A DNA stretch of 64,000 nucleotides from Octopus vulgaris (lineage: Eukaryota): positions 34,844,001 through 34,908,000 of the forward strand of contig OX597827.1 of the NCBI GenBank assembly GCA_951406725.2, in the 5' to 3' direction. The notes beneath the pieces are model-generated. The model ran no database searches and was not told the DNA's origin. It saw nothing but the letters and a program-made list of their open reading frames with translations. Positions 1,807 to 61,239 of the stretch are shown piece by piece. The position numbers were made by a program, and so were the translations under genes. Positions within the stretch are counted from its first letter, which is position 1; every line of letters starts with the position of its first letter.

Positions 1807-2856
1807 TTATAGTTGATTAACACCACCAGATTCTGGTAGGTTGTACTGGAAAACTTGATCCTTGTTAGATGATGGATTCACTTCAGCCAAGTTTGGCATC
1901 ATATGTGCTTTCTCATGACACTGTAGGATTGATTTTTGAGGGAAGACTTTTCCACAGACATTACATTCAAAGATTTTTTTGTTGCCATGTGTGCGTTTAT
2001 GAGTCTTGAGATTGCCTTTCTGGGAGAAATTCTTCCCACATATATCACAGGAGAATGGTTTCTCACCTGTATGAGTTCTGATGTGACTGAGTAGGTTAAT
2101 TCTTTGTGCAAACGCTTTGTCACATAAGGTGCAGACATATGGCTTGTGACATGCATGTGTGTGCTCATGGTTACGAAGGTGTGCACGCTGGCTGAATGCT
2201 TTTGAACAATGGGAACATTGAAAAGGTCGCTCTCCAGAGTGTGTCCTTATATGGTTACTAAGATGATCCTTCTGGCTGAATGCTTTTGGACAGGTGGGAC
2301 ATTTAAAAGGCCGTTCCCCTGTATGGGTGCGCTCGTGTACTTTGAGATGAGCTTTTTGGCTAAAAGACTTAAGACAAACTGAACATGTGTAAGGGCGGTC
2401 ACCTGTGTGTGTCCGCTCATGGCTGCGCAAATGTGCTTTCTGAGCAAACACTTTCTGGCAGTAGACACAACTATGATGCTGTTGCCGGTCACTATTTCCG
2501 GAAAATGCACTGTGTTCATGATTTTGAAGGTTTGCTCGCCGACTAAAGCTTTTGCGGCAAATTTCGCACTTGTAAGGTTTGCTGCTGTGACTTGCGACCT
2601 TGGCAGAAGTTTGCGACTCTGGTGCATTTAAATGTTCACGGTTATTCCGAGACTGGTAGCCACCCTTGACTGAATTGTTTAAATAATGAGGGCAAGTGGG
2701 TTCATGGTGATGGTGGTGATGGTGGTGGTGGTGGTGATGGTAGCGTGAGTGATTGTTATCTTCAGGTTGTTGAAATGGCTTGTTGTTGACGTCATATCTG
2801 TACTGGTTATCCACAGAAGATGAACTTGGATAAACAGGTTGCATGTGAAACATCAT
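1807..2856 (-). CDS. C2H2 zinc-finger protein (349 aa; poly-His tract; 7 canonical plus 1 degenerate finger), single coding exon (ZNF1 below)
   Basis: Intact ORF with CxxC-x12-HxxxH repeats and TGERPF/TGEKPF linkers. Confidence 0.95.
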   Translation of the reverse strand: MMFHMQPVYPSSSSVDNQYRYDVNNKPFQQPEDNNHSRYHHHHHHHHHHHHEPTCPHYLNNSVKGGYQSRNNREHLNAPESQTSAKVASHSSKPYKCEICRKSFSRRANLQNHEHSAFSGNSDRQQHHSCVYCQKVFAQKAHLRSHERTHTGDRPYTCSVCLKSFSQKAHLKVHERTHTGERPFKCPTCPKAFSQKDHLSNHIRTHSGERPFQCSHCSKAFSQRAHLRNHEHTHACHKPYVCTLCDKAFAQRINLLSHIRTHTGEKPFSCDICGKNFSQKGNLKTHKRTHGNKKIFECNVCGKVFPQKSILQCHEKAHMMPNLAEVNPSSNKDQVFQYNLPESGGVNQL

Positions 2857-3595
2857 AATTATATGTATGCGAAGGGCTTTGTTTAAAACATAAGGAATAT
2901 CTCATTCCATAGCAGTCATGGTGTTGCAAGCAAAACCAATTCTTTTTAAATTTTGTCAATTCTTAAATCATCACCTTAAACACCTACTGTTAATAATTCT
3001 TGACAATTCAAATACTTGGCTCTTAGAGGAAAGTTTGGACAAGCTGTAAGGATTCTTTATGCTTGATCATTGCATGCAAGCAGTTATGATATCTAGGGAT
3101 CATTGAAAGAATTAATGACTTTTGAATAATTTATAAATATATATATATGTGCATATAAAATTTTTTACAATGATCATATTTGTCTTAAATACTGTAGAAC
3201 CCCATGTACTATATGTAGTTTATCATAAAAACCAGTATTAAAATTAGAGGTGTATATAATACAATGTACTCATTAAAATACAGGTGTATATGAATATCTT
3301 GCTCAAATAATTTACAAGTAATCACAAGGTTTTTAAGACAATTTAGGTCCCGAAAATTAAGGTATGTACAATATACACAAACTTTATACTAAGTCAAATA
3401 AAGACTAGTAAATAATTTTTTCCTGCATATTTAGGTGTTACAGGATAAAAAGTCTGTTGTGTTGTGAGCTAGTTAGATCTGTTGAGTAGTCTTCATATAG
3501 TGTGTGACTTTGGCATCTCAACAAGATGTAGTCAAGAAAAGCAAATAAGACTCTTCTAGTTTTCTGTTTCAGTTACCATTCCAATCTCCATACAT
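2857..3595 (-). other. Putative 5' UTR part of the ZNF1 coding exon (acceptor AG at 3597-3596)
   Basis: Minus strand TTCTTTGTGTCTTTGCAG|ATG; repeats begin just beyond this point. Confidence 0.5.
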
Positions 3596-4298
3596 CTGCA
3601 AAGACACAAAGAATTAATCCAACACAAGAAAGCATGAAAGGCAACAACACAAACAATATAAATTTGAAGAAGTAGTAGTAGTAGCAGTAGAAGAAAAAGA
3701 AGAGCTCATAGTCATCTCTGATTGAGCAGACCTATGACCAACGATATACCAGCCATAATCAGAAACACTATATTGTCTAATGTGCTCTTCCTTTTTACAG
3801 GTAACAGGGAGTGATTTGAAATTTGGTTACTATTTCTAGCAGCTTGAACAACTGTGTAGATGCTCTCTCATTCTCTATAAAACCTAGTATAGTAGCAATA
3901 GTTTAGCCCTACATCAGGCCCTTTTGAAATAGTTTTATGACTGAAGATATTTCATCCTTGACCATCAGGTCTTTTATTTTCCAAGAAGCCTCTATGTAAC
4001 TGCTTGATCTGCTAGAAACAGGCACCACAAAAATAAGATGTGAGATTTATATGGAAGGTAAAATGTAACTGTGGGACATTTATTCCTTTTTTTTAAAGAG
4101 TATTAGTGAATTGGATGCAGTAAAATAGCTAGAAAAGATGGCAATTGAAAGTAAGTCTTAGGAAGCCAGGAAGAAGGGACCATAACTACTGTATTTTGTC
4201 TGATGTCAGTCATTTGGTGGGGGGTAGGATCACAGTGAATTAAATTGACCTCAGAATTTAACCAGCACTTTTCTTTTAATGACTATAGAAGAATGGTA

Positions 4299-4500
4299 AG
4301 GTGGCAAGCAGTCAGAATTGTTAGCATGTCAAACGAAAATCCTTAGAAGCATTTCTTCCTGTTGTTTATGTTCTGAGTTCAAACCCTGCCAAGGTCAACT
4401 TTGCCTTTTATCCTTTTGGGGGTCGATAAAATAAAGGACCAGTCAAGTACTGGGGTTGATGTAGTTGACTTGACCTCTCTTCTTAAAATTGCTGGCCTTC
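4299..4500 (+). mobile_element. tRNA-derived SINE, family 2
   Basis: GTTCTGAGTTCAAA box B, GGTCAACTTTGCCTTT, AGTACTGGGGTTGAT; further copies near 9515, 25370-25740, 33790, 37230, 37910, 41240, 62430. Confidence 0.7.
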
Positions 4501-4579
4501 AACCCTGCAATAGATTGATAGATAAATCTAGCTCTTATCCTCTCAGTTAACTTCGTTAGCAAGAGGAAGAAATTTAATG

Positions 4580-4945
4580 ACTTGTATGGTTAAGAAGCTT
4601 GGTTTGCAGCTGCTTGGTTTTGGGTTCAATTTCACTGTGCAGTACCTTGGGCAGATATCTTCTACTACTATAGATGCAGGCTGACCAATGCCTTGTAAGT
4701 AGATTTGGTGGACAGAAACTGTGGAAGACTGTGCAAGTGTGTTTTTGTGTTTGTCTTCCACCACTGCTTGACAACTGGTGTTGGTTTGCTTATGTCCCCG
4801 TAGCTTAGCAGTTCAGCAAAAGAGACTGTTAGACTAAGAATCAGACTTAAAAATAACTACTGGATGGAGTCAATTTGTTTGACCAAACTCTTCGAGATAG
4901 TGCTCCAGCATGGCTGCAGTCCTATGACTGAAACAAGTAAACAAT
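4580..4945 (+). mobile_element. SINE family 1, diverged copy
   Basis: Colinear with 769-1156. Confidence 0.75.
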
Positions 4946-7849
4946 AGATGATTAAGACAACCTTCTAACAGAGTGCAAAATTGATGTTAAAAATTTAAAA
5001 AGGAAAGTAGACACAACAAAAAATAAAAACATCAGTAGGTAGGTGACCAAAAATTTTTAAGCGTGAAAACAGGTGACAATACAGCAGCAAGTGTTCTAAG
5101 ATCATATTTTCCTTCTAACGCAGGGATTAGCTTTGCAGGGCCCCATGACAGACTTCTCTATTTTGCCCTGCGCTCTACATCCTTACCTAAATAATTCTAC
5201 TTACTCGTTTCCTTCAGGTATATTTTCATTGATCTTCCCTTTCCTTCCACATGTTGAGGAAGTGAGATGTTTAAGTGCAGTCACAGCTCCTTGGTTAAGA
5301 AGTTTATTTCACAACCATGTGGCTATGGGTTCAATCTCACTAAGTAGCACCTAGGACAATTGCCGTCCTTCAACTGTAAACTTAGATTGCCCAGTATCTT
5401 GGAGAGCTCTAGGTATCTCCACCTGGGTAGCTCTAAGGACATAATTGAAGGAGGGACACCCTGTTTATTAAGGAAATAAGCTTCTTAGATTCACGACAGC
5501 AGTTTTTGTTACCATATTTCTGTTGAAATATGGTAGCAAATTACTTTGTTACCATATTATTGCCTTTGTTTCAATTAATTTTGAAAATATTGAAGAATTT
5601 AATCAAATAAAACAGTCATTGTTAAGCTGGTATATGGAACATAAATTAAGATGAAATTTTGGTGGCAAGTTTTAACAGCAAGTTTGTGTTATAGAACCAA
5701 GGGCAGTTTCAGGTGTTTTGGCATCAAAAGAATTAAAGATATCAAGACCCAAATGATTAAATCAGCAGGGAAATTGTAATGGGGTGGTGATGGTGCTAGA
5801 GTTAAGCAGGTTGTTGTTCAGCACTAGGTCAATCCTGATGAAAGACCTAAGATTAAAGGCATTCTAGTTTGGACCATCTTGTCTTTGTAGGGGTACCTAA
5901 GACTACATTATGCAATGTGATCTTTTTTTTCTAAGACAAGATATAATGTGATTAGAGGGAGGTTTAACTGTTATTTCTAATGACTACAGACATGTTAACC
6001 TTGTTTGAGGTTTTGATGAAGATGCCTCATTAATTTAGCAATGCTGATGAAGTCAATGAAAATTAAGCTTATTCCTAAAAACTGGAAGAGGAGGAGGATA
6101 GGATGGGTTGTGTGTGTTATTGGAAGGGAACTGATGAAATGAGAAGTGAAATGAAGAGAATATGAAAGTAGTGTGTGTATGTGTGGAGGAGGTTCAGGCG
6201 CGGACAACATTTGTAGTAAATGAAGAAAGAGGAATGGGAGGAGGAAGAGCAGATTTTCAATAATCAATTCAAAATTACACTACAACAAAATATTTAAAAT
6301 TAGAATATTTAGAATGCATTCTTCCTTTTAGAACTTAATACCCTAGTCAATGGAGAGACACTATAAAAGACCGGAGGTAGTTAAGTAGATAGAATAGTGG
6401 GGTTGGACAGTACCAATGAGGATAACACTAATTGATTAGAGATATGGCGGAATATAGTGAGAGAGAGAGAGAGAACTACAGGAAAAGGGTATTTATAACA
6501 AGGAAGTTGGAAGGATACAGGGGAAAGTGTAAGAGAAATGAGGAAAAGGAGAATTTTTTAAACTTGTTCAACCCAACTATGGAACAAAAGTGTAGTGGTA
6601 GAGTATTAAATGAGATAAATTGGGTGTTCGTATTTCGGGGCTATTTTTTTATCATTATTGAGTAAAGTTTATAGCGAGATGTTACGTGTTTAATTTACCT
6701 GTATGTTCCATTGTACATCAACAAACGGAAGGGCGCTGGGGAAGGAGTGGGTTATTTTGGCAAAACAACAGCACCATAATAAAATGTTAAGTGGTAGGTA
6801 GGACAGTAGATTGAGTGGATCAAAGGTATTAAAACCGTCCAATTTTTTACGGAAGTATCTAAGATAACATTATGCGGAATGTCCATAGGATGTAAATGAA
6901 TACAGATTTCTACGTGAGTGAGCAGACATGTTCGTTCAGGACAATAGTTATCAAGACATGATAGGGAAGAACATTCTTAGATGTTCCATGATTTTAGTTA
7001 ACCATACAATACCTGATCTCCATCACGATTATTTGAAACGAAATATATAGAAAGTGGAATGGTAACCACTCCTAACAGAAATAGGCATCAAAAACTGCAA
7101 AGACGAACATAACAGGAAAACAAAGTGAAGACGGAATACTATTGTTCCTAAACCTAAGAAAAAAATCAGGCATAAACTTGACAATTATTGATTGAATAAA
7201 AAAATTTCCTCTCGGTTTATATTTTATCTTCTTAAATTATGTTGTGAATATCTTGTTCTGGCTGTAAACAAGCTAATTCAAAACTCGTCTTCAATCATGC
7301 ATTGATGTTATTACTAAGTGAAGAACCCTTTTTCGGGTGAAATTATTCTTTTTTGTAATTACCGGACATTTATTTTTCAATATTACAGTAATTTGTAACT
7401 GGAATGTAAAATGAAGATAATATTGTCGTTTAGCTCCAAGTCAGCTCTGGTCAAACTGTCGACAATATAAGTTCAGCACCATTCGATCTGTGACGATCTT
7501 TCTACGAATATCTAAGACTAGGTTTTCCAAGGTGCCCCTTGTTTTTAAGACAGATAGGCTCTGATTCAAGAACTTGCTGCTATTTCTAACAGTGCAACTT
7601 ACCATGCGAAGGTAAACCTCGATTCCGAGGAGAAAGCGAGTGGAGTAGAATGTGTAATATTGGAGTAAACAGTTGAAAGTGAAATAGATTGAATTGTAAC
7701 GACAAAGAATTGTGCTTCGCTCTATCTACTTGTATATCGGACGAGTGTTTTGGCGTGGACATGAAAGAAACACACGTGTGTATGTATAAGATTAGCGGCT
7801 CAGTTTATTTGTACGTCGGATATGTGGAAGGAAACAGTGATTATAGATG

Positions 7850-11400: not shown

Positions 11401-13011
11401 ACAAAGAGATGGACATAACACCCATTATAGTAAGATAGCAAATCTGCCCATCTACTATGGGAAATAAAGGGAAAGTATCGCAAATCTAAACCTTCTAAAT
11501 TCCTGAACTATACGAGGATGGGTGGAAATCCAGAGTTAATCCTCATCAAACAACAAAAAACAAATTAATACAAAACTCAATATCCACTAAATAATCATCC
11601 TTTTTCCCATTTTTTCTGCCAACAACCTTCTTGATTACCACCTTTGTAATCCCAAAAAACATTGTGACCATTTAACCATGGAGAGGGAACAGACAAATGG
11701 ACATAACTCCTATTATAGTAAGATTTGTTGTCATAGTATCACCTATATGCTTTCATGAATCTGTTATTATAAAACTTTAAACATTTTGAGAGCAAAGGGT
11801 CAAATATATGCTATGTAGTTGTGGCTCTTCCCACAAAGGGGAATTTATTGGTAATATTGATTTCAAATTTTGGCCCGGGGCCAGCAATTTTGGGGGAGAG
11901 ATAAGTCCAAGAGATCAACCCAAGTGTTCAACTTCTTATTTTATTGATCTTGAAAAGCACAGTCGACCTCATCAGAATTTAAATGCCAAAACCTTCCCAG
12001 GCGAAGAGTGTACCCCACAACATAGACTGGTAGTCAGTGACTTTAGAATCAGGACTAAGAGGACGACTAGAAGACGACCAACATGGAGAAGAAGGGTCTG
12101 GAAGCTTAAAGACCCTGCAAATGGACAGAGATTTAGAGACATGTTACTTGAAGCCTTCAACGAAATAGAAGGGGGTATAGCTACACATGGGGTAGAAGAT
12201 AACTGGACGCTTCTAAGGGACAACCTGCTGAAAGCCACAGACCAGATCTGTGGCTGGTGCAAAGTCCCCACAAGACCCAAAATAACGTGGTGGTGGAACA
12301 ATACTGTTGACAGGGCTATTAGACAAAAGAAACAGGCTTGGAAGGACTGGAAGAACGGTGGTAGCAGGGAAGTGTATCAGACTGCAAGAAGGGAGGCTAG
12401 GAGGCAGGTGTATTTAGCCAGAGGAGAAGCAGATAAGAAAAAAATTTGCCAATGTCCTGCGCCGTGAAGATGAAAGACTTGAGGTATTTCGTGTTGCAAG
12501 ACAGTATGTGAGAGAGAATCGTGACGTGGTAGGAGAGAAATGTGTTCGCAAGGATGACGGCTCACTTGCGCTAAATGAGGATGCAAAGAGAGAGGTTTGG
12601 AGACGCCACTATGAAAGGTTGCTGAATGAGGAAAATGAATGGGATAAAGAGAGTCTGCCGAATGTTGACCCAACAGAGGGACCAGCAATCCGAGTTGACA
12701 GTTCCTTAGTAGATAAGGCAATTAGAAGCATGAAAACAGGGAAAGTCCCAGGCCCATCAGGAATTACTGCAGAGATGCTCAAAATATCTGGTAGTGCTGG
12801 CTATAGCCTAGTCACCCTATAGTTAACCAGGTGATACACGAAGGAGTCATTCCCAATGACTGGTGTAGCAGCATAATAGTTAACTGCTACAAAGGTAAAG
12901 GTGACGCTCTAGATACAAATAACTACAGGGGTATCAAGCTGCTAGATCAGGTAATGAAGGTAACGGAGAGGGTTATAGCCCAACAAATTAGAGAGAGTTA
13001 GCTTAGATCAG

Positions 13012-14346
13012 ATGCAGTTTGGGTTCGTGCCAGGGAAAAGTACTACTGATGCTATTTTCCTTGTAAGACAGCTGCAGGAGAAATACCTAGCCAAAGACAA
13101 ACCCCTATACCTGGCTTTTGTCGATATGGAGAAAGCCTTCGACAGGGTCCCCCGATCCCTTATCTGGTGGTCAATGAGGAAGCTAGGGATAGATGAATGG
13201 TTAGTGAGAGCTGTACAAGCCATGTACAGAGACGCTGCTAGTAAGGTGAGGGTTGGCACCGAGTACAGTGAAGAATTCAGGGTAGAGGTAGGGGTCCACC
13301 AAGGTTCAGTCCTCAGCCCCCTCCTATTTATCATAGTCCTCCAGGCAATAACGGAGGAATTCAAGACTGGATGCCCCTGGGAGCTCCTCTATGCTGATGA
13401 CCTTGCTCTAATTGCTGAGTCTCTATCAGAACTGGAGGAGAAGTTTCAGGTGTGGAAGCAAGGTTTAGAATCGAAGGGCCTTAGAATCAACCTAGCCAAA
13501 ACCGAAGTCCTAATAAGTAGGAAGGTAGACCAATCACAAACGCCTTCAGGTAGATGGCCTTGCTCGATCTGTAGAAAAGGTGTAGGTAGAAACTCTATCA
13601 GATGCACCAAATGTAAGCTATGGACACATAAGAGATGTAGTAATGTCAAAGGAAGACTAACTAGGAAAATAGTTTATATCTGTGGCAGATGCTCAAGAGC
13701 AATAAACTCTGAAAATATGCAGAGACCAACTTCTATCAAGTTTCAGGGAGAAAAACTAGAAGTAGTTGATAGCTTCCGCTACCTAGGTGACCAAGTCAGT
13801 AGTGGGGGCGGGTGTGCTGAAAGTATAACTGCTAGAGTAAGAATAGCCTGGGCAAAGTTTAGAGAGCTCTTACCCCTACTGGTGACAAAAGGCCTCTCGC
13901 TCAAAGTAAAAGGCAGACTGTATGATGCATGTGTATGTACAGCCATGCTACATGGTAGTGAAACTTGGGCTGTGACTACTGAGGATTTACGTAAGCTCGC
14001 AAGAAATGAAGCTAGTATGCTCCGTTGGATGTGTAATGTCAGTGTTCATAGTCGACATAGTGTAAGTACCTTGAGAGAAAAGTTGGACCTAAGAGGCATC
14101 AGATGTTGTGTGCAAGAGAGACGATTGTGCTGGTATGGTCATGTGGCGAGAATGGACGAAGATAGGTGTGTGAAAAAGTGCCACACCCTGGCAGTTGAGG
14201 GGACCTGTGGAAGAGTTAGACCCAGGAAAACCTGGGTCGAGGTGGTGAAGCACGACCTTCGAACTCTAGGTCTCACCAAGGAAATGACCAGAGACCGAGA
14301 CCTGTGGAAGTATGCTGTGCGTGAGAAGACCCGGCAAGACCAGTGA
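13012..14346 (+). pseudogene. RTE reverse transcriptase ORF fragment (444 aa) with PHD-like Cys/His insert
   Basis: YADD, then CSIC..CTKC..H..C..CGRC, then FRYLG; upstream frameshifts near 12440-13010. Confidence 0.85.
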
Positions 14347-22466: not shown

Positions 22467-23690
22467 TTAATTGTGCACATCTGTGTGATAGACGTCCATC
22501 TGCTGTACAGAAGGGTGGTAAGCAACACTGATCTGAGGAGCAAGATTAGTATGGTAGAGTACATTGCCTGGATGTGGTTGTACAGTGATGTGATGGGGCA
22601 CATTGGTTAAGGTAGTTATAGTCGTTGCATTGCCATTGCCATGGTGAGCAGCGGCAGCTGTCACTGCAACTGGCTCTCCATTTTGTTCAGTTTCTACAGT
22701 CACAGCAGTTGAAGTCCCTTCTTCTGCAACAACACTGATACGAGGTACACAACTCAACTTTCTGACCCCTTTATTTGGCCGCTTGTGTCTTTCCAGATGG
22801 TCAATCCGCGTAAAGGCATAGCCACACAGTTCACACTTGAAAGGCCTCTCTCCAGAGTGAATGCGTTTATGGACACGTAGGTGATCACGCCGGGAAAATG
22901 CTTTGTTGCAGACATCACAGTTGAACAATTTAGGGCGTGAGTGTATCTTATGGTGAGTGGAGAGCTTGCCTGTTGTTGAGAATCCTTTACCACAAACATC
23001 ACAAACATATGGCATGACTGGAATATGCCCAGATGATGCAGAAAACTGACCTTGCTTTTGAAGACCAATGCCTTGTGATTGGTTGTATTCTCGCCAACAT
23101 TCTTCACAGTCAAATGGTGGATTCGATGTTACTGGTGCAATCTGGTTGGAGATAACTTGATGATGTTGTTGTTGTTGCTGAGGATAAACAAGATCACTGG
23201 ACCTCACTGCATTACTAGTATGTAGGTTTGCATTGTTATTCTTATTACTCTTTTTGACCCGATTTTTCTTCACAGGAGATGCTTGGGGTGTGGCAATTAT
23301 TTGGTTGTTGATGTTGTACACTTTGCCACTGTGTTGTGTACGTGTGTGCCGTACGAGGTAATCTTTCCGTGAAAATGCACACCCACATATATTGCACTTG
23401 AATGGGCGTACCCCAGTATGTATCCGCTCATGCACAGTGAGATGTGATTTCTGGGAGAAACTGCGATCACAGGTCAAACATGTAAAGAGCTTCTCACCGC
23501 GATGAGTGCGTTTATGACGCTCCAGATTGTGACGGCTGAAAATTTTGCCACAAATATTGCATACTGCTGTCTTATCAGTGACAGATGCAGTGGAAGCAGT
23601 TGTATTCAGGTGAACTATAGTGGCAGCTGTTTCTAAATCCTGCACATCACAATGGATCAAAGTAGCAGTACTGGGCATAAGAGTATTCAT
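22467..23690 (-). CDS. C2H2 zinc-finger protein (~407 aa from first ATG; two 3-finger clusters separated by a Q/N-rich linker) (ZNF2 below)
   Basis: Intact ORF; track start at 23723 is TTG, first ATG at 23690 (MNTLMPS); linkers TGVRPF, SGERPF. Confidence 0.92.
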   Translation of the reverse strand: MNTLMPSTATLIHCDVQDLETAATIVHLNTTASTASVTDKTAVCNICGKIFSRHNLERHKRTHRGEKLFTCLTCDRSFSQKSHLTVHERIHTGVRPFKCNICGCAFSRKDYLVRHTRTQHSGKVYNINNQIIATPQASPVKKNRVKKSNKNNNANLHTSNAVRSSDLVYPQQQQQHHQVISNQIAPVTSNPPFDCEECWREYNQSQGIGLQKQGQFSASSGHIPVMPYVCDVCGKGFSTTGKLSTHHKIHSRPKLFNCDVCNKAFSRRDHLRVHKRIHSGERPFKCELCGYAFTRIDHLERHKRPNKGVRKLSCVPRISVVAEEGTSTAVTVETEQNGEPVAVTAAAAHHGNGNATTITTLTNVPHHITVQPHPGNVLYHTNLAPQISVAYHPSVQQMDVYHTDVHN

Positions 23691-24319
23691 TGGTGACAAG
23701 GTAGAAAATCCAGAAACATACAAATAATTGAGATCTTAGAAAACAAAAAAAACTGACCCCTGGCTTTCTATAGTGAAACGGGGTTAAATATTATCTTCAT
23801 AGTAATTAGTTTAGTCTAATGAAAATAAAATGTTCATTAGGTTGCTTTCTTCCCTAAATTACTGGTTAGTCACACTCTGTATAATTTTTCTTTATAAAAC
23901 TTCATATATATAGCTTTTAAAAATAGTTTATAACAAAATGCTGGCAGCTACCATAACTAAAGATTTTAAAAAAGTAGTAGTAGTAGTATCAGCAAACATT
24001 AACAGGAGTTAGTTGACTTCGTGAATTGAATAACATGACAACACAAATAGAACCTCTTCCAAATAGTCTGCTTTGATTTCATTCCTCTCAGCTATCTTAA
24101 ATAGTTGTGACAAGAACAAGAGCACAACTCTGTAGAAACATGAGAGTGGATTAGCTCAAAGTTGGTAATAGATATGTGTCTCTATACGCATATGTATGTA
24201 TATATATATATACACACACAGAGGAAAGAAGGTAGTCAATATGTAGTGTTGGAGATAAAGGCACTTGGGTGACGTGGAGCAGCTAATATTTTGGTAATAC
24301 ACTTCAGCACAGCATCAAC
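23691..24319 (-). other. Putative 5' UTR part of the ZNF2 exon (acceptor at 24321-24320; alternative at 23736-23735)
   Basis: Minus strand TTATTTTTATCTTTGTAG|GTT. Confidence 0.45.
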
Positions 24320-35222: not shown

Positions 35223-37140
35223 TTAGAGTGTGCATATGCAGTTTGGGTTCGTGCCAGGGAAAAGCACCACTGATGCTATATTTCTGGTAAGATAGCTGCA
35301 GGAGAAATACCTAGCCAAAGATAAACCTCTGTACCTGGCTTTTGTTGACATGGAGAAAGCCTTTGACAGCCCCCCCCCCCGATCTCTTATCTGGTGGTTA
35401 ATGAGGAAACTAGGGATAAATGAATGGTTAGTGACAGCTGTGAAAGCCATGTACAGGGTCGCTGTCAGTAAGGTGAGAGTTGGCAATGACTACAGTGAAG
35501 AATTCTGGGTAGAGGTAGGGGTCCACCAAGGTTCAGTCCTCAGCCTCCTCCTATTTATCCTAGTCCTCCAGGCAATAACAGAGAAATTCAAGACAGCTCC
35601 TCTATGCTGATGGCCTTGCTCTAGTTGCTGAGTCACTATCAGAACTAGAGGAGATGTTTCAGGTGTGGAAGCAAGGATTAGAATCAAAGGGCCTTAGAGT
35701 CAATCTAGCTAAAACCAAAGTCCTAATAAGTAGGAAGGCAGACAAACCACAGGTCCCTTCAGGTAGATGGTCTTGCTCGATCTGTAGAAAAGGTGTAGGT
35801 AGAAACTCTATAAGATGTACCCAGTATAAGCTATGAACTCATAAGAGGTGCAGCGATATCAAATGAAGGCTAACTGGGAAGATAGTTTTTATATGTGGCA
35901 GATGCTCAGGAGCAATAAACACTGAAAATGTGCAGAGAACAACTTCTGCCACATTCCAGGGTGAAAAACTAGAAGCAGTTGATAGCTTCCATTACCTAGG
36001 TGACCAAGTCAGTAGGGAGGTGGGGTGGGGGTGCACTGAAAGTGTAGCTACGAGAATAAAAATAACCTGGGCAAAGTTCAGAGAGCTCTTACCTCTGCTG
36101 GTGACAAAGGGACTCTCACACAGAGTAAAAGGTAGACTGTATGATGCATGTGTACGAACTGTCATGCTACATGGCAGTGAAAAATGGGCTGTGACTGCTG
36201 AGGACAGGTGTAAGCTTGCAAGGAATGAAGCCTGTATGCTCCAATGGATGTGTAATGTCAGTGTGCATACTCTACAGAGTGTAAGTACCCTGAGAGAAAA
36301 GTTGGACCTTAGAAGCATCAGTTATGGTGTGCAAGAGAGGCGACTGTGCTGGTATTGTCATGTGGTGAGAATGGATGAGGATAGCAGTGTGCAAAAGTTC
36401 CACACTCTAGCGGTTGAGGGAACCTGTGGAAGAGGTAGACCCAGGAAGACCTGGGATGAGGTTGTAAAGCACAACCTTCAAACATTAGGCCTCAGGGAGG
36501 CAACGACTAGTGACCAAGACCTTTGGAAATATGCCGTGCTTGAGAAGACCCTGCAAGCTAAGTGAAACCATAACCCATGACCTATGCCAGTGGTGTAACC
36601 AGCCCACTTATGTGTACCTTTCCTTCATTGGACACTAAACTCTGCTTGTGAAGACCTGTTGAGGGAAGTGGAATTGAAATCAAAATCAAATTCAATGACT
36701 GGCATCTATGCCAGTGGAGTGCTAAGAGAACCATCCGAGCATGATCGTTGCCAGAGCAGCTGACTGTCACGCAAAAAGCACCATTTGTGTGTGATCGTTA
36801 CCAGTGTCACCTTACTGGCACTTGTGCCGGTGGCATGTGAAAAGGCATTCAAGCAAGGTCGTTGCCAGTGCTGCTGGACTGGCTCCTGTGCAGGTGGCAC
36901 ATAAAAAAAACACCATTTGAGTGAGGCCCTTGCCAGTACCGCCTGACTGGCCCTCGTACCAGTGGCATGTAAAAGCACCCACTATACTCTCAGAGTGGTT
37001 GGCGTTAGGAAGGGCATCCAACTGTAGAAACTCTGCCAGATCAGATCGGAGCCTGGTGCAGCCATCTGGTTCACACGTCCTTAGTCAAATCGTCCAACCT
37101 ATGCTAGCATGGAAAGTGGACGTTAAACAATGATGATGAT
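35223..37140 (+). mobile_element. RTE-clade LINE, older decayed copy of the 11980-14999 family
   Basis: Colinear RT fragments with stops and frameshifts, 3' UTR repeats, (TGA)n tail. Confidence 0.9.
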
Positions 37141-47194: not shown

Positions 47195-47196
47195 AT

Positions 47197-47232
47197 TGGT
47201 GACCCCGACGTGATTCGAACATGCAGCCTTCT
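47197..47232 (+). other. tRNA-Trp primer-binding site extended to 36 nt (antisense copy of tRNA 3' half with CCA)
   Basis: Reverse complement AGAAGGCTGCATGTTCGAATCACGTCGGGGTCA-CCA matches the metazoan tRNA-Trp 3' half as recalled, with one transition. Confidence 0.8.
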
Positions 47233-51477: not shown

Positions 51478-52640
51478 CTAGCAGAGATACCCGGCGTTGC
51501 CCGGTTACATTCAATTGAAGAATTAGACTTTTCTGTTATATTTTCTGTAATGAACTGGAATACCTATGTTTCAAATTTCATTAAAATTGCAGATGAGGGT
51601 TATTTCCCTCTTTACACACCCTAAAAAATTGTAATCGTACCACATGTATCCCATACTACTGATTTTTATGTGCATATTCCAAAATTCCAGTCTTATAGAA
51701 CCTGTTAAAAGGATTTTGCTCTTGAAATATGGAGGTCATGGAGCTCTAAAATGTGAGAGTTAGCGCCCCTATTGGGGGTGGGCATCTTAATGCCAACCAG
51801 AGAAGTTGAATTGTTGAGAATCTTTTTAATTTGGGTCTTATATCTATTGTTTGAATTTCTTTGAAATAGGAAATATATGTTCACTGGGTTTGTAAAAGAG
51901 AGCAAAGCTACAGGAAACCAAAAGACGAATGATCACAATAAGCAGTCAGCTACAGTACCCTAGTCGTTACCACTCCCAATATAGGATTCCTCACCATCCA
52001 GGTGACAGGCACAGCCGTAAGATGCATTACGAATCTATAGCAATTGGAAGGGCGTGACCCAACTGAAATAAACATGAACAACTGTGTGACGTGAGGGCTA
52101 AGGAGAAATGAAAGCTGGAGTTTGCAAATTACCACTATACTGATACGTAACTGGACAGAGTAAATATACAATCTATAAATGTCTTTGAATAACCAGTCAC
52201 TCATTTGGGAAGACCTTGAAATCAATGTTACCGTGTGGAGACTATGTGTGACCGAGTGATAATAAAAAGACTGAAAGGAGGTCTGCAATCAAATAACTTT
52301 ACTCAACACTTTGCAACTGAATCAGTGGAGGCAAAGATGTCTCTCATTTACTTGACAATTTATGCAGCACATTGCAGAAATCACAATGTAAGTGTATGTC
52401 AAAGCAAACTGTTACACTGTTGTACCATTGAATAAGAAATAATGCCCAACTTTTATGCTTGGGTAACCCTACAACTTCCAAGAGTACAACTGTATTCGTT
52501 TTTGCTTAGATAAAATGACAAAATTGTGGGTGTTAAGTCCCCATGGAGGGGTCTTTCTAACTTTGTAAGAAGATGAAATTTTATAAATATTACTTCATTT
52601 GTATCTAATATATATGACTAAAATTTGGCAGTTAGGGTGT
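51478..52640 (-). mobile_element. Non-autonomous Helitron, long family (copy A)
   Basis: 3' end CCGGGCAACGCCGGG hairpin plus CTAG on minus strand; inverted match to 55640-56748. Confidence 0.8.
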
Positions 52641-52714
<74 letters not shown>

Positions 52715-52938
52715 TACAAAGATAAATTGATAGATTTATCTTTGTATGTGTGTGTGTGTGTGTATATATATAACACCCTAATGGGAGCCTTAACTGCCAA
52801 ATTTTATTCATTTCTTTTATGATCCAAAACTAGGTCAAAAGTACTGAATGGATTTTTATGAAATTTGGAAATTATATTCTATGCATAAGGGCCATAAACC
52901 CCATGACAATTCATATATTTTTACTGTTGGCAAGACTA

Positions 52939-53514
52939 GAGCGATAAAATGAAGTAGCTGTTCGTCAAACGTGATCGATAAAATGACGTAGCGGTTCGCC
53001 AAACGAGATCGATAAAATGACGTAGCGGTTCGCCAAACGAAATTGCTAAAATGACTTAGCGGTACGCCAAACATGATCCATAAAATGACTTAGCGGTTCG
53101 ACAACGAGATCTATAAAATCACTAAGCGGTTCACCAAACGAGATCGGTAAAATGACTTTGCGTTTCGCCAAACGTGATCGATAAAATGACTTAGCGGTTC
53201 GCTATTCAAGATCGATAAAATGACATAGCGGTTCGAGAAATTAAATCGATAAAATGACTTAGCGGTTCGCCAAACGAGATCCATAAAATGACCTAGAGGT
53301 TCGGCAAACGTAATCGATAAAATGACCTAGCTGTTCGCCAAACGAGTTCGATAAAATGACGTAGCAGTTCACCAAACGAGATCAATAAAATGACCAAGCG
53401 GTTCGGTGAACAAGATCGTTAAAATGGATTAGCGATTCGCCAAAAATGAGATCGATAAAATGACCTAGCGGTTTGCCAAACGAGGTCGATAAAATGATGT
53501 AGTGGTTCGACAAA
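52939..53514. repeat. 34-bp minisatellite, ~17 units
   Basis: Consensus GATCGATAAAATGACNTAGCGGTTCGCCAAACGA. Confidence 0.95.
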
Positions 53515-53554
53515 CACACACACACACACACAAACACACAAACACACACACACA

Positions 53555-55161: not shown

Positions 55162-56748
55162 TCAAAGACAATGTCTTTATGTGTTCGTGTATTACTTATA
55201 CATTCGAAAACTGCTGTACCGATCATAATGAAATTTGGAACACAAAATCGAAGCCTAGGGAGAAGGTTAATGCTGTGTGTTTCATACAATTTCATGGACC
55301 AAAATCACTGAATGGATCCTTATGATATTTGAAACTTAGATTCAATGCATTTGTGCGGGTATAATGCAATATGTTTGGTTTGAATTTCATATATTTTCGA
55401 TGTTGATGAAATTTCAACCATGCGTAATTGACACACATCAAGAAGTATTCTCAAAGTTTCCACTTCACATGAGGATTCTAAGACACACTAATGGGGGCCT
55501 TAACTCCCAAATTTTAGTCATTTCTTTTATGATCCAAAACTAAGTCAAAAGTACTGAATGGATCTTCACGAAATTTGGAAATTATATTTTATGCATAAGG
55601 GTCACAACCCCCATGACAATTCATATATTTTTAAACCATAGATATTAGATACAAATGAAGTAATATTTATAAAATTTCATCTTCTTACAAGTTAGAAAGA
55701 CCCACAATTTTGTCATTTTTTCTAAGTAAAGACGAATACAGTTGTACTCTTGGAAGTTGTGGGGTCATCCGAGCATAGAAGATGAGCATTATTTGTAATT
55801 CAATGGTACAACAGTGTAACAGTTTGCTTTGACATACACTTACATTGTGATTTCTGCAATGTGCTGCATAAATTGTCAAGTAAATGAGAGGCATCTTTGA
55901 CTCCACTGATTCAGTTGCAAAGTGTTGAGTAAAGTTATTTGATTGCAGATCTCCTTTCAGTCTTTTTATTATCATTCGGTCACACATAGTCCCCAGATGG
56001 TAACATTGATTTCAAGGCCTTCCCAGATGAGTGACTGGTTATTCAAAGACATTTATAGATTGTAAATTTATTTTGTCCAGTTACGTATCAGTATAGTGGT
56101 AATTTGCAAACTCCAGCTTTCATTTCTCCTTAGCCCTCACGTCACACAGTTGTTCATGTTTATTTCAGTTGGGTCACGCCATTCCACTTGCTATAGATTC
56201 GTAATGTATCGTATGGCTGTGCCTGTCACCTTGATGGTGAGGAATCCTATATTGGGAGTGGTAAAGACTAGAGTACTGTAGCTGAATGCTTATTGTGATC
56301 ATTCGTCTTTTGGTTTCCTGTAGCTTTGCTCTCTTTTACAAACCCAGTGAACATATATTTCCTATTTCAAAGAAATTCAAACAATAGATATAAGACCCAA
56401 ATTAAAAAGATTCTCAACAATTCAACTTCTCTGGTTGACATTAAGATGCCCACCCCCACATTAACTCTCACATTTTAGAGCTCCATGACCTCCATATTTC
56501 AAGAGCAAAATCCTTTTAACAGGTTCTATAAGACTGGAATTTTGGAATATGCGCATAAAAATCAGTAGTATGGGATACATGTGGTACGATTACAATTTTT
56601 TTAGGGTGTGTAAAGAGGGAAATAACCCTCATCTGCAATTTTAATGAAATTCGAAACATAGGTATTCCAGTTCATTACAGAAAATATAACAGAAAAGTCT
56701 AATTCTTCAATTGTATGTACCTGGGGCAACGCCGGGTAACTCTGCTAG
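55162..56748 (+). mobile_element. Non-autonomous Helitron, long family (copy E)
   Basis: A|TC start; ends GGGCAACGCCGGGTAACTCTGCTAG|T. Confidence 0.8.
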
Positions 56749-56799: not shown

Positions 56800-57810
56800 A
56801 AGTGTGATTTGAAAGGGATTTGATTACTATTTCTAGCAAATCGAACGATCGCCTAGAGGTCCCCGAAGGAGGTTTTTCTTGTTTAATCCCAAGTTTATCT
56901 AACAGAGTTGATGTATAATCAAAGTCATTTCAGTCTTGACCACCCAATCTTGATTTTAGATCTTAGGACAGCGTGATTCAACTTTTCCCTACCTTATTTA
57001 AGACGGCAGGGAGATTTGGTCGTTAACTCTAGCAAGCCAAGTGACCACGTAATAGTTCTTATCGAGTTTCAGTACGAAGGAAATACGTAATGGTTCTTAT
57101 GTTGTTTCATTTGGAGAAGATAATCCATTTTTATAGAGTGTTTCAAACATTTCGATCGATCTTAGTTGCTCCCATCTGTTGTTTGATCGATAACTATAAA
57201 ACACATTCACTGTGAACAAATTATCCGGCTTTGATTAATGCTAGCTATTGTGTAGTCAATTGCTCGATCTCTAATCACATTATATGTATTTTAGGTTTTC
57301 TAATAGCTCTTGCTTTTCCAACCACAGAACAAACTATTCATTATAGTTGTTCCAGTCATGACCTTCCAAACTGCGTTTTTTTTTCCGGTTAATCTAGAGT
57401 TAGATTATCCAATATCGTGTTCCCTTTTAAAATAGTGGGGGTGTTATTTCAGGGAGATTTTTAGTTCTTATCTCTAGTTGATTCAACGACCGTATAGAGT
57501 CTTTTTTAATGGTTCATATTATGTTGGTTTGTTGTTTAGCCCATGGTCAACTCATGCTGAACCATCCCTGCTGAGCCATCACGCCTTTTATATGTGGTAT
57601 CTAGAACTACATGATCTAGTATGTGTTAATCAAATTAAGACAGTGGGGTGTGAATCAGTGAGTGACATAGCAAGGTTTCTCTTAGCCTGCGGGTTGGTGT
57701 GAAAGCCACCTTAAGCATTTGCTCCCCTTCGCACTACTTTTGTTACATTTCTGATGTGATTTGAGGGATATTTGACCATTATTTCTGACAGATCGTGGGG
57801 CAATGTAGAG
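56800..57810 (+). repeat. Cluster of diverged ~200-bp interspersed repeats
   Basis: TTGTTTAGCCC...GATTTG..TATTTCTAGCA motifs, also near 220-360, 3700-4020, 5810-5990, 7425-7610, 61900-62100. Confidence 0.55.
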
Positions 57811-58529
57811 GCTCGCTTATCGGTTAATACTGTATCAGCATACAATATAAGTTCTCGAATATTGGTGTGAGTTGGATTTTATGTTGTCTATACCAGTGGT
57901 TTTAAAATTTAGGTTGTCTACACCAGTTGTTTTAAAATTGAAAGCACCAGCTTCCGCAACCAAATACCCCTCCATCTTTATTAATGAAAAGAAAATCATA
58001 AGTTCGAAGTCTTATAATAATTTCTTTCTTTGACATGATGTTGGGAAAATTCAAAAGTTACGAAATCATCTAATTTTATTTTGCATGGCAATTTGTTCAC
58101 TGCTTTTTCAATCCTCACAGGTCTCCTCAGAGAGAGAGCTACCCTCTATGAGAAACACTGGTCTCTGCTCTTTACTTATTTTTGTAGGGGTCATAAGCGG
58201 CTGTTGAAGGAATGTGTACTGAGGGTTTGTGAATGATAGTAGCGATATCTATCGACACCGTCTTGATATAATTTTGGTCGTAGTTCGTCATTTTATGATG
58301 TATGACACAGGCAATCGACCGGACGCTTGGGTTCAGTCTAAAGATCCATGTTCCCGGCATAGTTTAGCTTTGCATAGTTGAGGACCATACTTGATACTCT
58401 AACATGTGGTGGTTGGTGTTTAGCTCCACCTACAACAAATAGTTCCTAAAAGGTAAAAAGAGAAAAAATACTCAAAATGAGCAAAGTTCAATGAGTATTG
58501 AACTGTCACTGGGAAATCAATTGAAAATG

Positions 58530-59972
58530 TCAAATATAAATAGTTTTGGAAAGTTTTTTCGGCCAGTGAACAGTTCTGCCTGACCTCGTAACATAAGGTC
58601 TGGTCGAGGCAGGCTGCGACGACGAAGGTGGTGATGTCGATGTTGGTGTTGATGATGGTGCATGTGTAAATAGTGGTGTTGTCAAAGGTGCATGTGAAGG
58701 TTCAACGATGGTTGTGGCAGTGGGGTCATTAAAAGATGTGGACACCTCAAAATATGCCCTTTTAAGACGATCTACGGAGACGGTCTCCGAACGACTGTTA
58801 ATTTCAAGTTTGAATACCTTCGGCGTGCGAGAAATCACACGAAAAGGTCCTTTATAAGGAGAAACAAGAGGTCCTTTGACAGAATCATCACGAATAAAAA
58901 CATGCGTCCAAGAATTAAGGTCTGATGGCACACTAGAAGGAGGATTTTTGTGTCGAGGGTCCATAGGAGGAAGGGCAGAAAAATATCTGCGTAATCGAGC
59001 AACATAAGACTCTAAATTAAGAGACTGTGACTTGTCTGGCACCAACATCGTACCAGGCAATGCCAGTGTGGTACCATACAAGAGCTCGGCAGACGAAAAA
59101 CCAAGGTCTGCTTTAATCGCAGTCCGACATCCAAGCAGGACGATCGGTAGAATTTCAGTCCATGACTGTGGATTCGGCGAGGCACGCAAAGCGGCCTTAA
59201 GTTGCCTATGGAAACGCTCCACCATCCCATTAAAAGCGGGGTGGTAACTTGTGGTGCGTATATGATGCATCCCCAGGATTCGTGATAACTCACGAAACAA
59301 TGCAGACTCGAATTGTCGACCACGATCTGTGGTTAAACTGTACGGTACACCATACCTCGAAATCCAATTAGATACGAAAGCCCTCGCAACAGTTTCAGCT
59401 GAAATGTCTGCTATAGGAATAGCTTCCAGCCAGCGTGAAAAGCGATCAATACAAGTTAAAATGTATGAGAACCCGCGACTCACAGGCCATGGTCCAACCA
59501 AATCAAGGTGGATATGGCGAAAACGGGCTTCAGGAGAGGAAAATTGTCCAAGTGGAGCACGAACGTGTCTATGGACTTTAGCACTCTGGCACCTCAAACA
59601 AGAGCGTGCCCAAGAGGTAATTGATCGTCGCATATTGGGCCAGAAGAACCGAGCAGTAACAAGCTTTACTGTGGCAGAGATACCTGGATGTGACAGTGAA
59701 TGAAGAGCATCAAACACAGAACGTTGATGTTTCTCAGGTACTAATGGTCTAGGTGAACCGGTAGAAACGTCACAAAGAATAGAGCCTTCCGCTGTAGGGA
59801 GCGGAAGGTAGACAAACTTACAGTTAATAAACTTAGGCGAAGTTAAATCCAACTCCTCTAAAGGTGGTTGATCCTGCGAAATAGCAGTTAAATCAATTGC
59901 TGCAGGAGAGGAAATGGAATTGACAGGGAGTCTAGAGAGAGCATCTGCAGGGACGTTCTCACTGCCTGGCAC
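58530..59972 (-). mobile_element. Ty3/Gypsy integrase region (CsRn1/Kabuki-like), 480-aa open fragment without gag/RT
   Basis: HSLSH..CLRC zinc motif, [36 protein letters not shown]. Confidence 0.92.
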
Positions 59973-59973
59973 A

Positions 59974-60588
59974 TGCCTGGTACGATGTTGGTGCCAGACA
60001 AGTCACAGTCTCTTAATTTAAAGTCTTATGTTGCTCGATTACGCAGATATTTTTCTGCCCTTCCTCCTATGGACCCTCGACACAAAAATCCTCCTTCTAG
60101 TGTGCCATCAGACCTTAATTCTTGGACGCATGTTTTTATTCGTGATGATTCTGTCAAAGGACCTCTTGTTTCTCCTTATAAAGGACCTTTTCGTGTGATT
60201 TCTCGCACGCCGAAGGTATTCAAACTTGAAATTAACGGTCGTTCGGAGACCGTCTCCGTAGATCGTCTTAAAAGGGTATATTTTGAGGTGTCCACATCTT
60301 TTAATGACCCCACTGCCACAACCATCGTTGAACTTTCACATGCACCTTTGACAACACCACTATTTACACATGCACCATCATCAACACCAACATCGACAAC
60401 ACCACCTTCGTCGTCGCAGCCTGCCTCGAACAGACCTTATGTTACGAGGTCAGGCAGAACTGTTCACTGGCCGAAAAAACTTTCCAAAACTATTTATATT
60501 TGACATTTTCAATTGACTTCCCACTGACAGTTCAATACTCATTGAACTTTGCTCATTTTGAGTATTTTTTCTCTTTTTACCTTTTAGG
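59974..60588 (+). repeat. Inverted duplicate of 58445-59059 (integrase C-terminus plus 3' flank)
   Basis: 615 bp, 8 substitutions counted by eye. Confidence 0.95.
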
Positions 60589-60707
60589 TGAATTAAAAAA
60601 AATTTTTTTTTTTAAATAGATATACTTTATTGTTTTATACCGGTGAGAAATCAGTGGTATATCTGATATCCTTTGTTCTGGGCACGCAAGGCTGAAAGTT
60701 AATCGCT

Positions 60708-61239
60708 TGTAAGATTTACAATGTTCAGCCGCTAAAAACAGAACGGGTTAAAGATGGCCGCAGAATATGAAGACGATGTTGTCCGCAACAATTTGGTAAA
60801 AAACCTTCGGCCGACTGCTATCAAAGCTGGACAGAGAGAAATATACGTCTGCTGGTATCAAAGGCCTTCTGCTGTCTCTCTGCTGTCTCTCTGCTGGACG
60901 CTGATGGGCAAGGTTTTTGCGTTCCCTTGCCTCTTTTCTAAGGGTCGCTTTTCCTAGCCAATCAGCTAATTCCACGAATAGCAATATTCCCTCTTCTGTT
61001 GATGAAAACACGCGCGAATCAGAAAAGGGCGTTGCGCGCGCGCGCTGTTGTATAGCGTCACTACAGTTCCGTTATTCGGAGGACTTCTTTCATCTCAACG
61101 AATGTGAATTGCTGCTATATTTCCTTCGTACTGAAACTCGATATTTCGCATCCTACGTCTTTTAATCGTATTCTTTTATATAAATAATTGGTGAAATTGC
61201 CTTGAGATTTCCAAGAGAAACAGTAAAAATCTTGTTACA
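60708..61239 (+). mobile_element. Candidate LTR (~530 bp) or host CpG-rich promoter
   Basis: TGTAAGATTT ... AAATCTTGTTACA near-inverted termini; CCAAT box; YY1-like AAGATGGCCGC; no PPT or TSD seen. Confidence 0.45.

Follow-up and report, generated by a model that had tools for sequence, protein, structure and literature searches.

Aberrant insertions of retroelement cDNA are already known as a kind. In vitro, the minus-strand DNA of HIV-1 can prime its own extension, a dead end that is suppressed by nucleocapsid (PMC6088434). Both ASLV and HIV-1 can insert through a single good end, usually with a target duplication much longer than normal (PMC5041404), and proviruses that are inverted or have truncated LTRs are found in vivo (PMC9278108). 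In the accessible text of PMC12657518, nothing on inversion or self-priming was found. The CsRn1 clade of Gypsy elements is marked by a CHCC Gag motif, a tRNA-Trp primer, and a 4-bp target duplication (PMC2582038), and AATAAA with a GT-rich stretch is the usual polyadenylation layout of Metaviridae (PMC3601003).

Here we analyzed a stretch of 64,000 nt from Octopus vulgaris (contig OX597827.1, positions 34,844,001 to 34,908,000; the window), in which an earlier note had reported a fold-back duplication of a Gypsy integrase. We found that the inverted repeat is part of one larger 2.6-kb object, located at 58446-61065. This insertion is a one-off, dead fragment of a Gypsy retrotransposon rather than an intact or autonomous LTR retrotransposon. 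In the literature covered, mainly non-subscription texts, we found no description of a poly(A)-primed, snap-back LTR insertion, and this combination of features was likewise not found described.

Structure of the insertion and its parent family

The two 615-nt arms reported previously (58445-59059 and 59974-60588) were recovered, separated by a spacer of 914 nt where ~915 bp had been given. The arms differ by eight substitutions, and all six of those in coding sequence are non-synonymous, as the earlier note had counted. The long minus-strand frame (58530-60002) is indeed still open. It carries the integrase zinc-binding (PF17921) and core (PF00665) domains in Pfam; both fall within the spacer, and the arms hold only the C-terminal part of the integrase and the 3'UTR.

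Alignment to a full-length element placed the inverted arms on a natural copy of the family and brought out the LTR piece, the A11/T8 junction, and the target duplication, which had been missed before. Read on the minus strand, the order on one natural copy is LTR nt 1-445, a run of eleven A (A11), T8AA, antisense 5011-4384, and sense 3472-5005. The LTR piece (60614-61065, minus strand; 452 nt), which we read as U3-R, begins at the exact TG. It contains a TATA-like box (60639-60633) and AATAAA (60631-60626) and breaks off 12 nt past AATAAA, so that the GT-rich part of U5 that follows AATAAA in the family is missing. The piece is 92-96% identical to family LTRs and belongs to the same subfamily as the arms. 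It is followed by A11 (60613-60603), a putative poly(A) tail, and by T8AA, a 10-nt inverted and locally templated insert (together 60593-60613, minus strand); the insert and the A-run can fold into a 10-bp stem with a 3-nt loop. The right arm (59974-60594, plus strand), a second copy of the integrase C-terminal part and 3'UTR, extends to the first two T of an internal T-tract. At the fold-back junction (59974-59978), the joined sequences share 5 bp of microhomology (TGCCT), embedded in an imperfect match of 11-12 nt. A TGCCTGG repeat had been proposed as the junction signal, but its first copy is native antisense sequence. The spacer, or loop (59060-59973, minus strand; natural copy 3472-4390), contains the end of RNase H and the zinc-binding domain and catalytic core of the integrase in single copy. 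The left arm (58446-59059, minus strand; natural copy 4391-5005), again integrase C-terminal part and 3'UTR, forms the non-LTR end.

The insertion is bounded by GTTC (plus strand) at 58442-58445 and by the same four bases at 61066-61069, a coincidence with a chance of ~0.005; because the adjoining bases also match, duplications of 3-5 bp can be read. The exact TG at 61065, the duplication of family length, and an empty site (see below) point to a likely integrase-made insertion. A CA-3' att sequence is not present at both ends, the left end reading ...TTTTAG. Two direct LTRs, PBS, PPT, and gag-pol are also lacking at the locus, which holds LTR 1-445 and internal 3472-5011. An integrase DNA transposon of the Ginger/TIR type, or a fold-back family, was considered and rejected: one arm is internal, and neither the junction nor the left end recurs elsewhere in the genome.

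Both arms had been described as ending exactly at a splice acceptor-like site. However, the right arm follows the family copies for 6 nt more, to 60594, and the left arm's final base (58445) is part of the target duplication. All 24 close copies read TTT(T/A)AG followed by TGAA and the T-tract, while the AG is missing in four of five more distant copies, the fifth being unaligned at that point. The exact motif was matched 25 times (the 24 other copies and the right arm) with continuation as TGAATT; genome-wide, the left arm alone breaks off after the motif and is the sole place without a following T. Since 24 other copies continue through it, the acceptor is not an end signal. The arms terminate at the internal T-tract, not at a splice site. 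This tract was present in 11/11 copies examined (one of the 12 whole copies was left out) as 6-16 T located 109-115 nt before the 3' LTR, being the longest T-run in only four. The antisense piece begins exactly at the tract, and the left arm stops 6-7 nt short of it.

We searched the 2.8-Gb genome for relatives of the insertion. Among the best 40 of 580 candidates, 24 loci matched the 1529-nt sense piece at 97.8-99.1% identity, and five others did so at 91-96%. Twelve whole copies, chosen among the top matches, were taken with their flanks. They are mostly ~5.7 kb long, with LTRs of ~565 nt and TG...CA ends, and 11 have a 4-bp target duplication, the twelfth being unreadable. The domain order is RT-RNase H-integrase, and the CHCC Gag motif (CX2HX9CX3C) was found in 10/12. 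In six of six copies examined, the PBS is complementary to the 3' end of the genome's tRNA-Trp over ~10-11 nt, with one extra base in three copies and one mismatch in one. Judged from Gag motif, primer site, domain order, LTR ends, and duplication, the insertion derives from a CsRn1-like family of Gypsy elements that is still young. The earlier claim that the family is young held: besides the 24 near-identical copies, LTR pairs are only 0-1.4% apart (pooled, 43/6829 bases differ). The closest named protein, 94% identical over 49% of the query, is labelled Octopus sinensis; proteins of Schistosoma and Spirometra are among the integrase relatives at 46-53%. Two LTR subtypes were seen among L031-L042, 81-85% alike over part of the LTR with nearly identical internal regions, which suggests that family members recombine or that their U3 turns over fast.

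Several tRNA-Trp sequences were also noted. Eight tRNA-Trp genes lie within 10 kb at L091 946-9522 (G000 C6, ~58.38-58.46 Mb), with further pattern matches near this cluster; ARAGORN found no tRNA genes in either the window or L087-L090. At window 47195-47220, the plus strand carries a long stretch exactly complementary to the 3' end of tRNA-Trp. ARAGORN does not call it a tRNA gene, and it probably represents the primer site of a different LTR element.

The window contains other repeats and frames. A second inverted pair (51500-52534 and 55697-56725; ~1035 nt, 95%) consists of a high-copy dispersed repeat (2068 candidates, 93-95% identical). At four loci checked, no second arm of this unit was found within 1.5 kb, and the similarity of the pair runs beyond the called ends; it is therefore likely to be two independent copies in opposite orientation. 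Inside it is a 34-bp tandem repeat of ~15 copies (52858-53515). Single-exon-like frames for C2H2 zinc-finger arrays were seen at window 1807-2901 and 22467-23735 (both minus strand) and at L044 6158-7954 (plus strand). With such frames on both sides of the insertion, the locus sits in a zinc-finger gene region. Remnants of LINE-type reverse transcriptase with a PHD-like finger occupy window 11790-14346 and 35296-36565.

Origin of the inverted repeat

We compared the arms with the family to determine how many templates were involved. At one position, both arms share an allele that is absent from 29/29 other copies, and a second shared allele is absent from the 24 closest copies. At the eight positions where the arms differ, the family base is in the left arm four times and in the right arm four times, giving four derived changes per arm. 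The rare shared alleles together with this 4/4 split exclude arms derived from two different copies, in agreement with the earlier rejection of two replicating copies, and indicate that one molecule was copied on itself and that both arms mutated afterwards. The divergence between arms is 1.30%, and each is 97.8-98.6% identical to young family copies. C-to-T or G-to-A changes make up five of the eight differences and A-to-G changes none, which rules out RNA-editing marks among them. The non-synonymous changes had been taken as a sign of neutral divergence; the count is right, but with P=0.17 for six of six under random change, the pattern alone is weak evidence.

Sequencing runs revealed the site without the insertion. 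In run X4, a 2076-nt contig matches 61065-61380 with its letters 1-316 and 57400-58446 with its letters 311-1367, the two matches being joined as one record by their same length, depth, and strand. This contig is the empty site, with a single copy of the duplicated bases. Run X7 has a contig of the same length, compared on the right side only. The X4 flanks differ from the window at 17/1373 bases, plus gaps. This resembles the 1.3% between the arms, suggesting that the insertion dates from about the time of that split. In runs X1 and X2, contigs enter the insert from both unique flanks with no differences, reaching 27-29 nt, which is under the 31-nt bridging rule; one of these runs may be the source of the assembly. 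The two inner junctions were not seen among the contig matches listed, in a data type where contigs drop rare variants. Run X19, guessed to be RNA and matched at the left junction only, has one family-type contig that leaves the flank uncovered.

The reading that we favour, with moderate confidence, is that a poly(A) tail primed reverse transcription on a U-tract, that the cDNA snapped back, and that integrase joined its one good end. The tail, of the same RNA or of a co-packaged partner, would pair with the U-tract ~112 nt before the 3' LTR and prime minus-strand DNA without a tRNA, a short false start leaving the 10-nt insert, whose folding on the A-run fits an abortive start. About 1.5 kb on, the 3' end of the DNA would anneal to itself at TGCCT and be copied back, producing the arms and the 914-nt loop. 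Copying would then leave the DNA for the attached RNA primer, running through poly(A), R, and U3 to the polypurine tract. Second-strand synthesis from the polypurine tract would create the exact TG end, while removal of the primer would leave the other end at the T-tract; this could explain why the stopping points of the two arms lie within 6-7 nt. Finally, integrase would insert the LTR end, the other end being trimmed by ~15 nt and joined at the 4-bp stagger. We infer these steps from an anatomy, a single template, a target duplication, and an empty site that are themselves observed. On this account, the arms have decayed neutrally since insertion. One process would thus explain the site of the LTR break, a seemingly untemplated A11 without homology at its join, the start at the T-tract, the shared arm ends, and the TG with its duplication.

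Other observations bear on these junctions. The two family sequences joined at LTR/A11 have no homology on either strand, and none of 29 other LTR loci (best 40 of 742 candidates scored) has an A-run at the LTR break. Breakpoints lying as close past AATAAA and before the GT-rich stretch make up 2.6% of the copy and 7.5% of the LTR. For 3'-anchored self-annealing, 93 of 4349 natural-copy positions are as good as the fold-back site or better, placing it in the best 2%. The 30-mer across the fold-back junction occurs once in the genome.

Against the favoured reading, the genome has a single instance: in exact-pattern searches, which miss diverged cases, the poly(A)-joined LTR pattern, the junction 30-mer, and the left-end pattern each matched this locus only. 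The poly(A) site of the family is predicted from motifs, some family LTRs carry a second polyadenylation hexamer, and A11 could be the antisense of the T-tract. The T-tract, as noted, is the longest in only 4/11 copies, the inner junctions are not among the contigs listed, and self-primed HIV-1 products are suppressed dead ends (PMC6088434). The weak point is the normal 4-bp duplication at an end without CA, which keeps two rivals alive.

In the first, which we consider unlikely but the most serious contender, synthesis began normally from the tRNA, the minus strand folded back on itself, and its T-run then annealed to the poly(A) tail of a second RNA and was extended. The product, with two good LTR ends, integrated normally, the 3'UTR end and 3' LTR being deleted later. 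This would yield the same poly(A) and fold-back junctions and explains the normal duplication without a non-CA end. It needs, however, a later deletion of ~690 nt running from the base of the stem exactly to the target duplication, with 1-2 nt of homology, and recombination between direct LTRs would instead leave a solo LTR.

The second rival, also improbable and placed just behind it, is that a full-length copy inserted here and that break repair subsequently reshaped it within the chromosome, through fold-back inversion and deletions. A single template fits, and the 4-bp duplication comes free. Fold-back at short microhomology with a small templated insert is typical of break repair, and chromosomal fold-back inversions at double-strand breaks have inverted arms, an unduplicated spacer, and microhomology, as does this locus. 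Unlike them, the locus is bounded by a transposon target duplication and has an empty site, and no flank is duplicated or lost. Rearrangement would require three independent breakpoints to coincide with the poly(A) position, with the T-tract in each arm, and with the exact LTR end; the LTR/A11 join lacks DNA homology, and neither arm extends into LTR or flank. The local duplication proposed earlier stands as to its one template, while duplication in place within the chromosome is doubtful: a cDNA folded before insertion is suggested by the poly(A)-like junction together with the target duplication and the empty site.

Copying of a polyadenylated Gypsy RNA into a break by a LINE enzyme or host polymerase, through twin priming or templated repair, is very unlikely. 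It could account for the poly(A)-like run, the inversion, and the small insert, and LINE reverse transcriptase remnants are common in the window. The end exactly at the TG of the LTR already disfavours it, and the duplication has the Gypsy length. Twin priming puts poly(A) at the target junction and inverts without duplicating the 3' piece, while here the A-run lies inside the insertion and the 3' part is present twice. An assembly or library artefact is remote: fold-back chimeras are a known artefact and the inner junctions are missing from the contig matches listed, but the differences are split four and four between the arms, the target duplication is present, and the X1 and X2 contigs enter from both flanks, so that the locus, as the earlier note had also judged, is not a simple read chimera.

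Potential for hairpin RNA

The earlier note inferred that transcription would give a hairpin RNA acting against the family. Whatever the origin of the locus, a function as such a "killer" seems very doubtful. The U3 with its TATA-like box faces the repeat, and the locus has lost the GT-rich element that follows AATAAA. In a minus-strand transcript, the arms would form a 615-nt duplex with six mismatches and two wobbles, the longest run being 263, and the arms are 97.8-98.6% identical to young copies. The locus is thus, like Mu killer (PMC3440606), an inverted transposon duplication able to pair, and hairpin RNA from it is possible. However, siRNA-type Dicer and Argonaute are reported missing in molluscs, Octopus bimaculoides included (PMC12479628). 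AATAAA and ATTAAA in the first arm could end transcripts early, and the locus is missing from run X4. In addition, the arms have diverged further than the LTRs of 11 of the 12 pairs (1.30% against 0.63% for the pooled pairs), a difference of marginal significance (P ~0.04) in copies taken from the top matches, suggesting that the family kept moving after the insertion. RNA editing is extensive in cephalopods. Any dsRNA from the locus would more probably serve as a substrate for editing or as a source of piRNAs than as a silencer.

The combined scenario, in which an LTR element skips the tRNA, primes on its own tail, snaps back, and integrates, creating in one step a dsRNA locus behind its own promoter that is transcribed and restrains the family, is a long shot. 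If true, one faulty round of replication would plant a self-made dsRNA locus, whether killer or editing substrate. If the origin alone is true, the locus would be a genomic fossil of tRNA-independent, tail-primed reverse transcription, with a hairpin inserted by a single att end and with a duplication of normal length, and LTR families would have a route to promoter-driven inverted repeats. It would also provide a signature searchable in any genome: U3-R, an A-run, an antisense piece from an internal T-tract, a fold-back, and a far end that returns to this tract. By itself, the locus has little consequence, being one dead copy with a putative RNA output.

Comparison with known systems

The parent family resembles elements of the CsRn1 clade, such as PwRn1 and AgCR, in its CHCC Gag motif, tRNA-Trp site, 4-bp duplication, RT-RH-IN order, and length of ~5.7 kb (PMC2582038). 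Unlike them, the locus retains just U3-R, the end of RNase H, integrase, and 3'UTR, without primer site, gag, protease, RT, U5, or second LTR.

Mu killer of maize (PMC3440606) and the antisense nested EVD insertion (PMC11624286) are, like this locus, partial inverted transposon duplications with potential hairpin RNA. They originated, however, by transposition of DNA or by nested insertion and act in plants, which have siRNA pathways, while the candidate promoter here is the element's own U3, with putative activity.

The proposed origin is closest to retroviral self-primed minus-strand DNA, in which the 3' end likewise anneals to itself and is extended (PMC6088434). The retroviral case concerns strong-stop DNA in vitro; the proposed octopus event would have taken place 1.5 kb in, with a 914-nt loop, and its product is preserved in a germline genome. 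One-ended retroviral integrations and asymmetric-LTR proviruses share with the locus one exact LTR end and one truncated end, as well as joins of viral to viral DNA in either orientation, ascribed to reverse transcription errors or host joining (PMC5041404, PMC9278108). The locus differs from these cases in its duplication of normal length, its internal poly(A)-like run, and its lack of U5.
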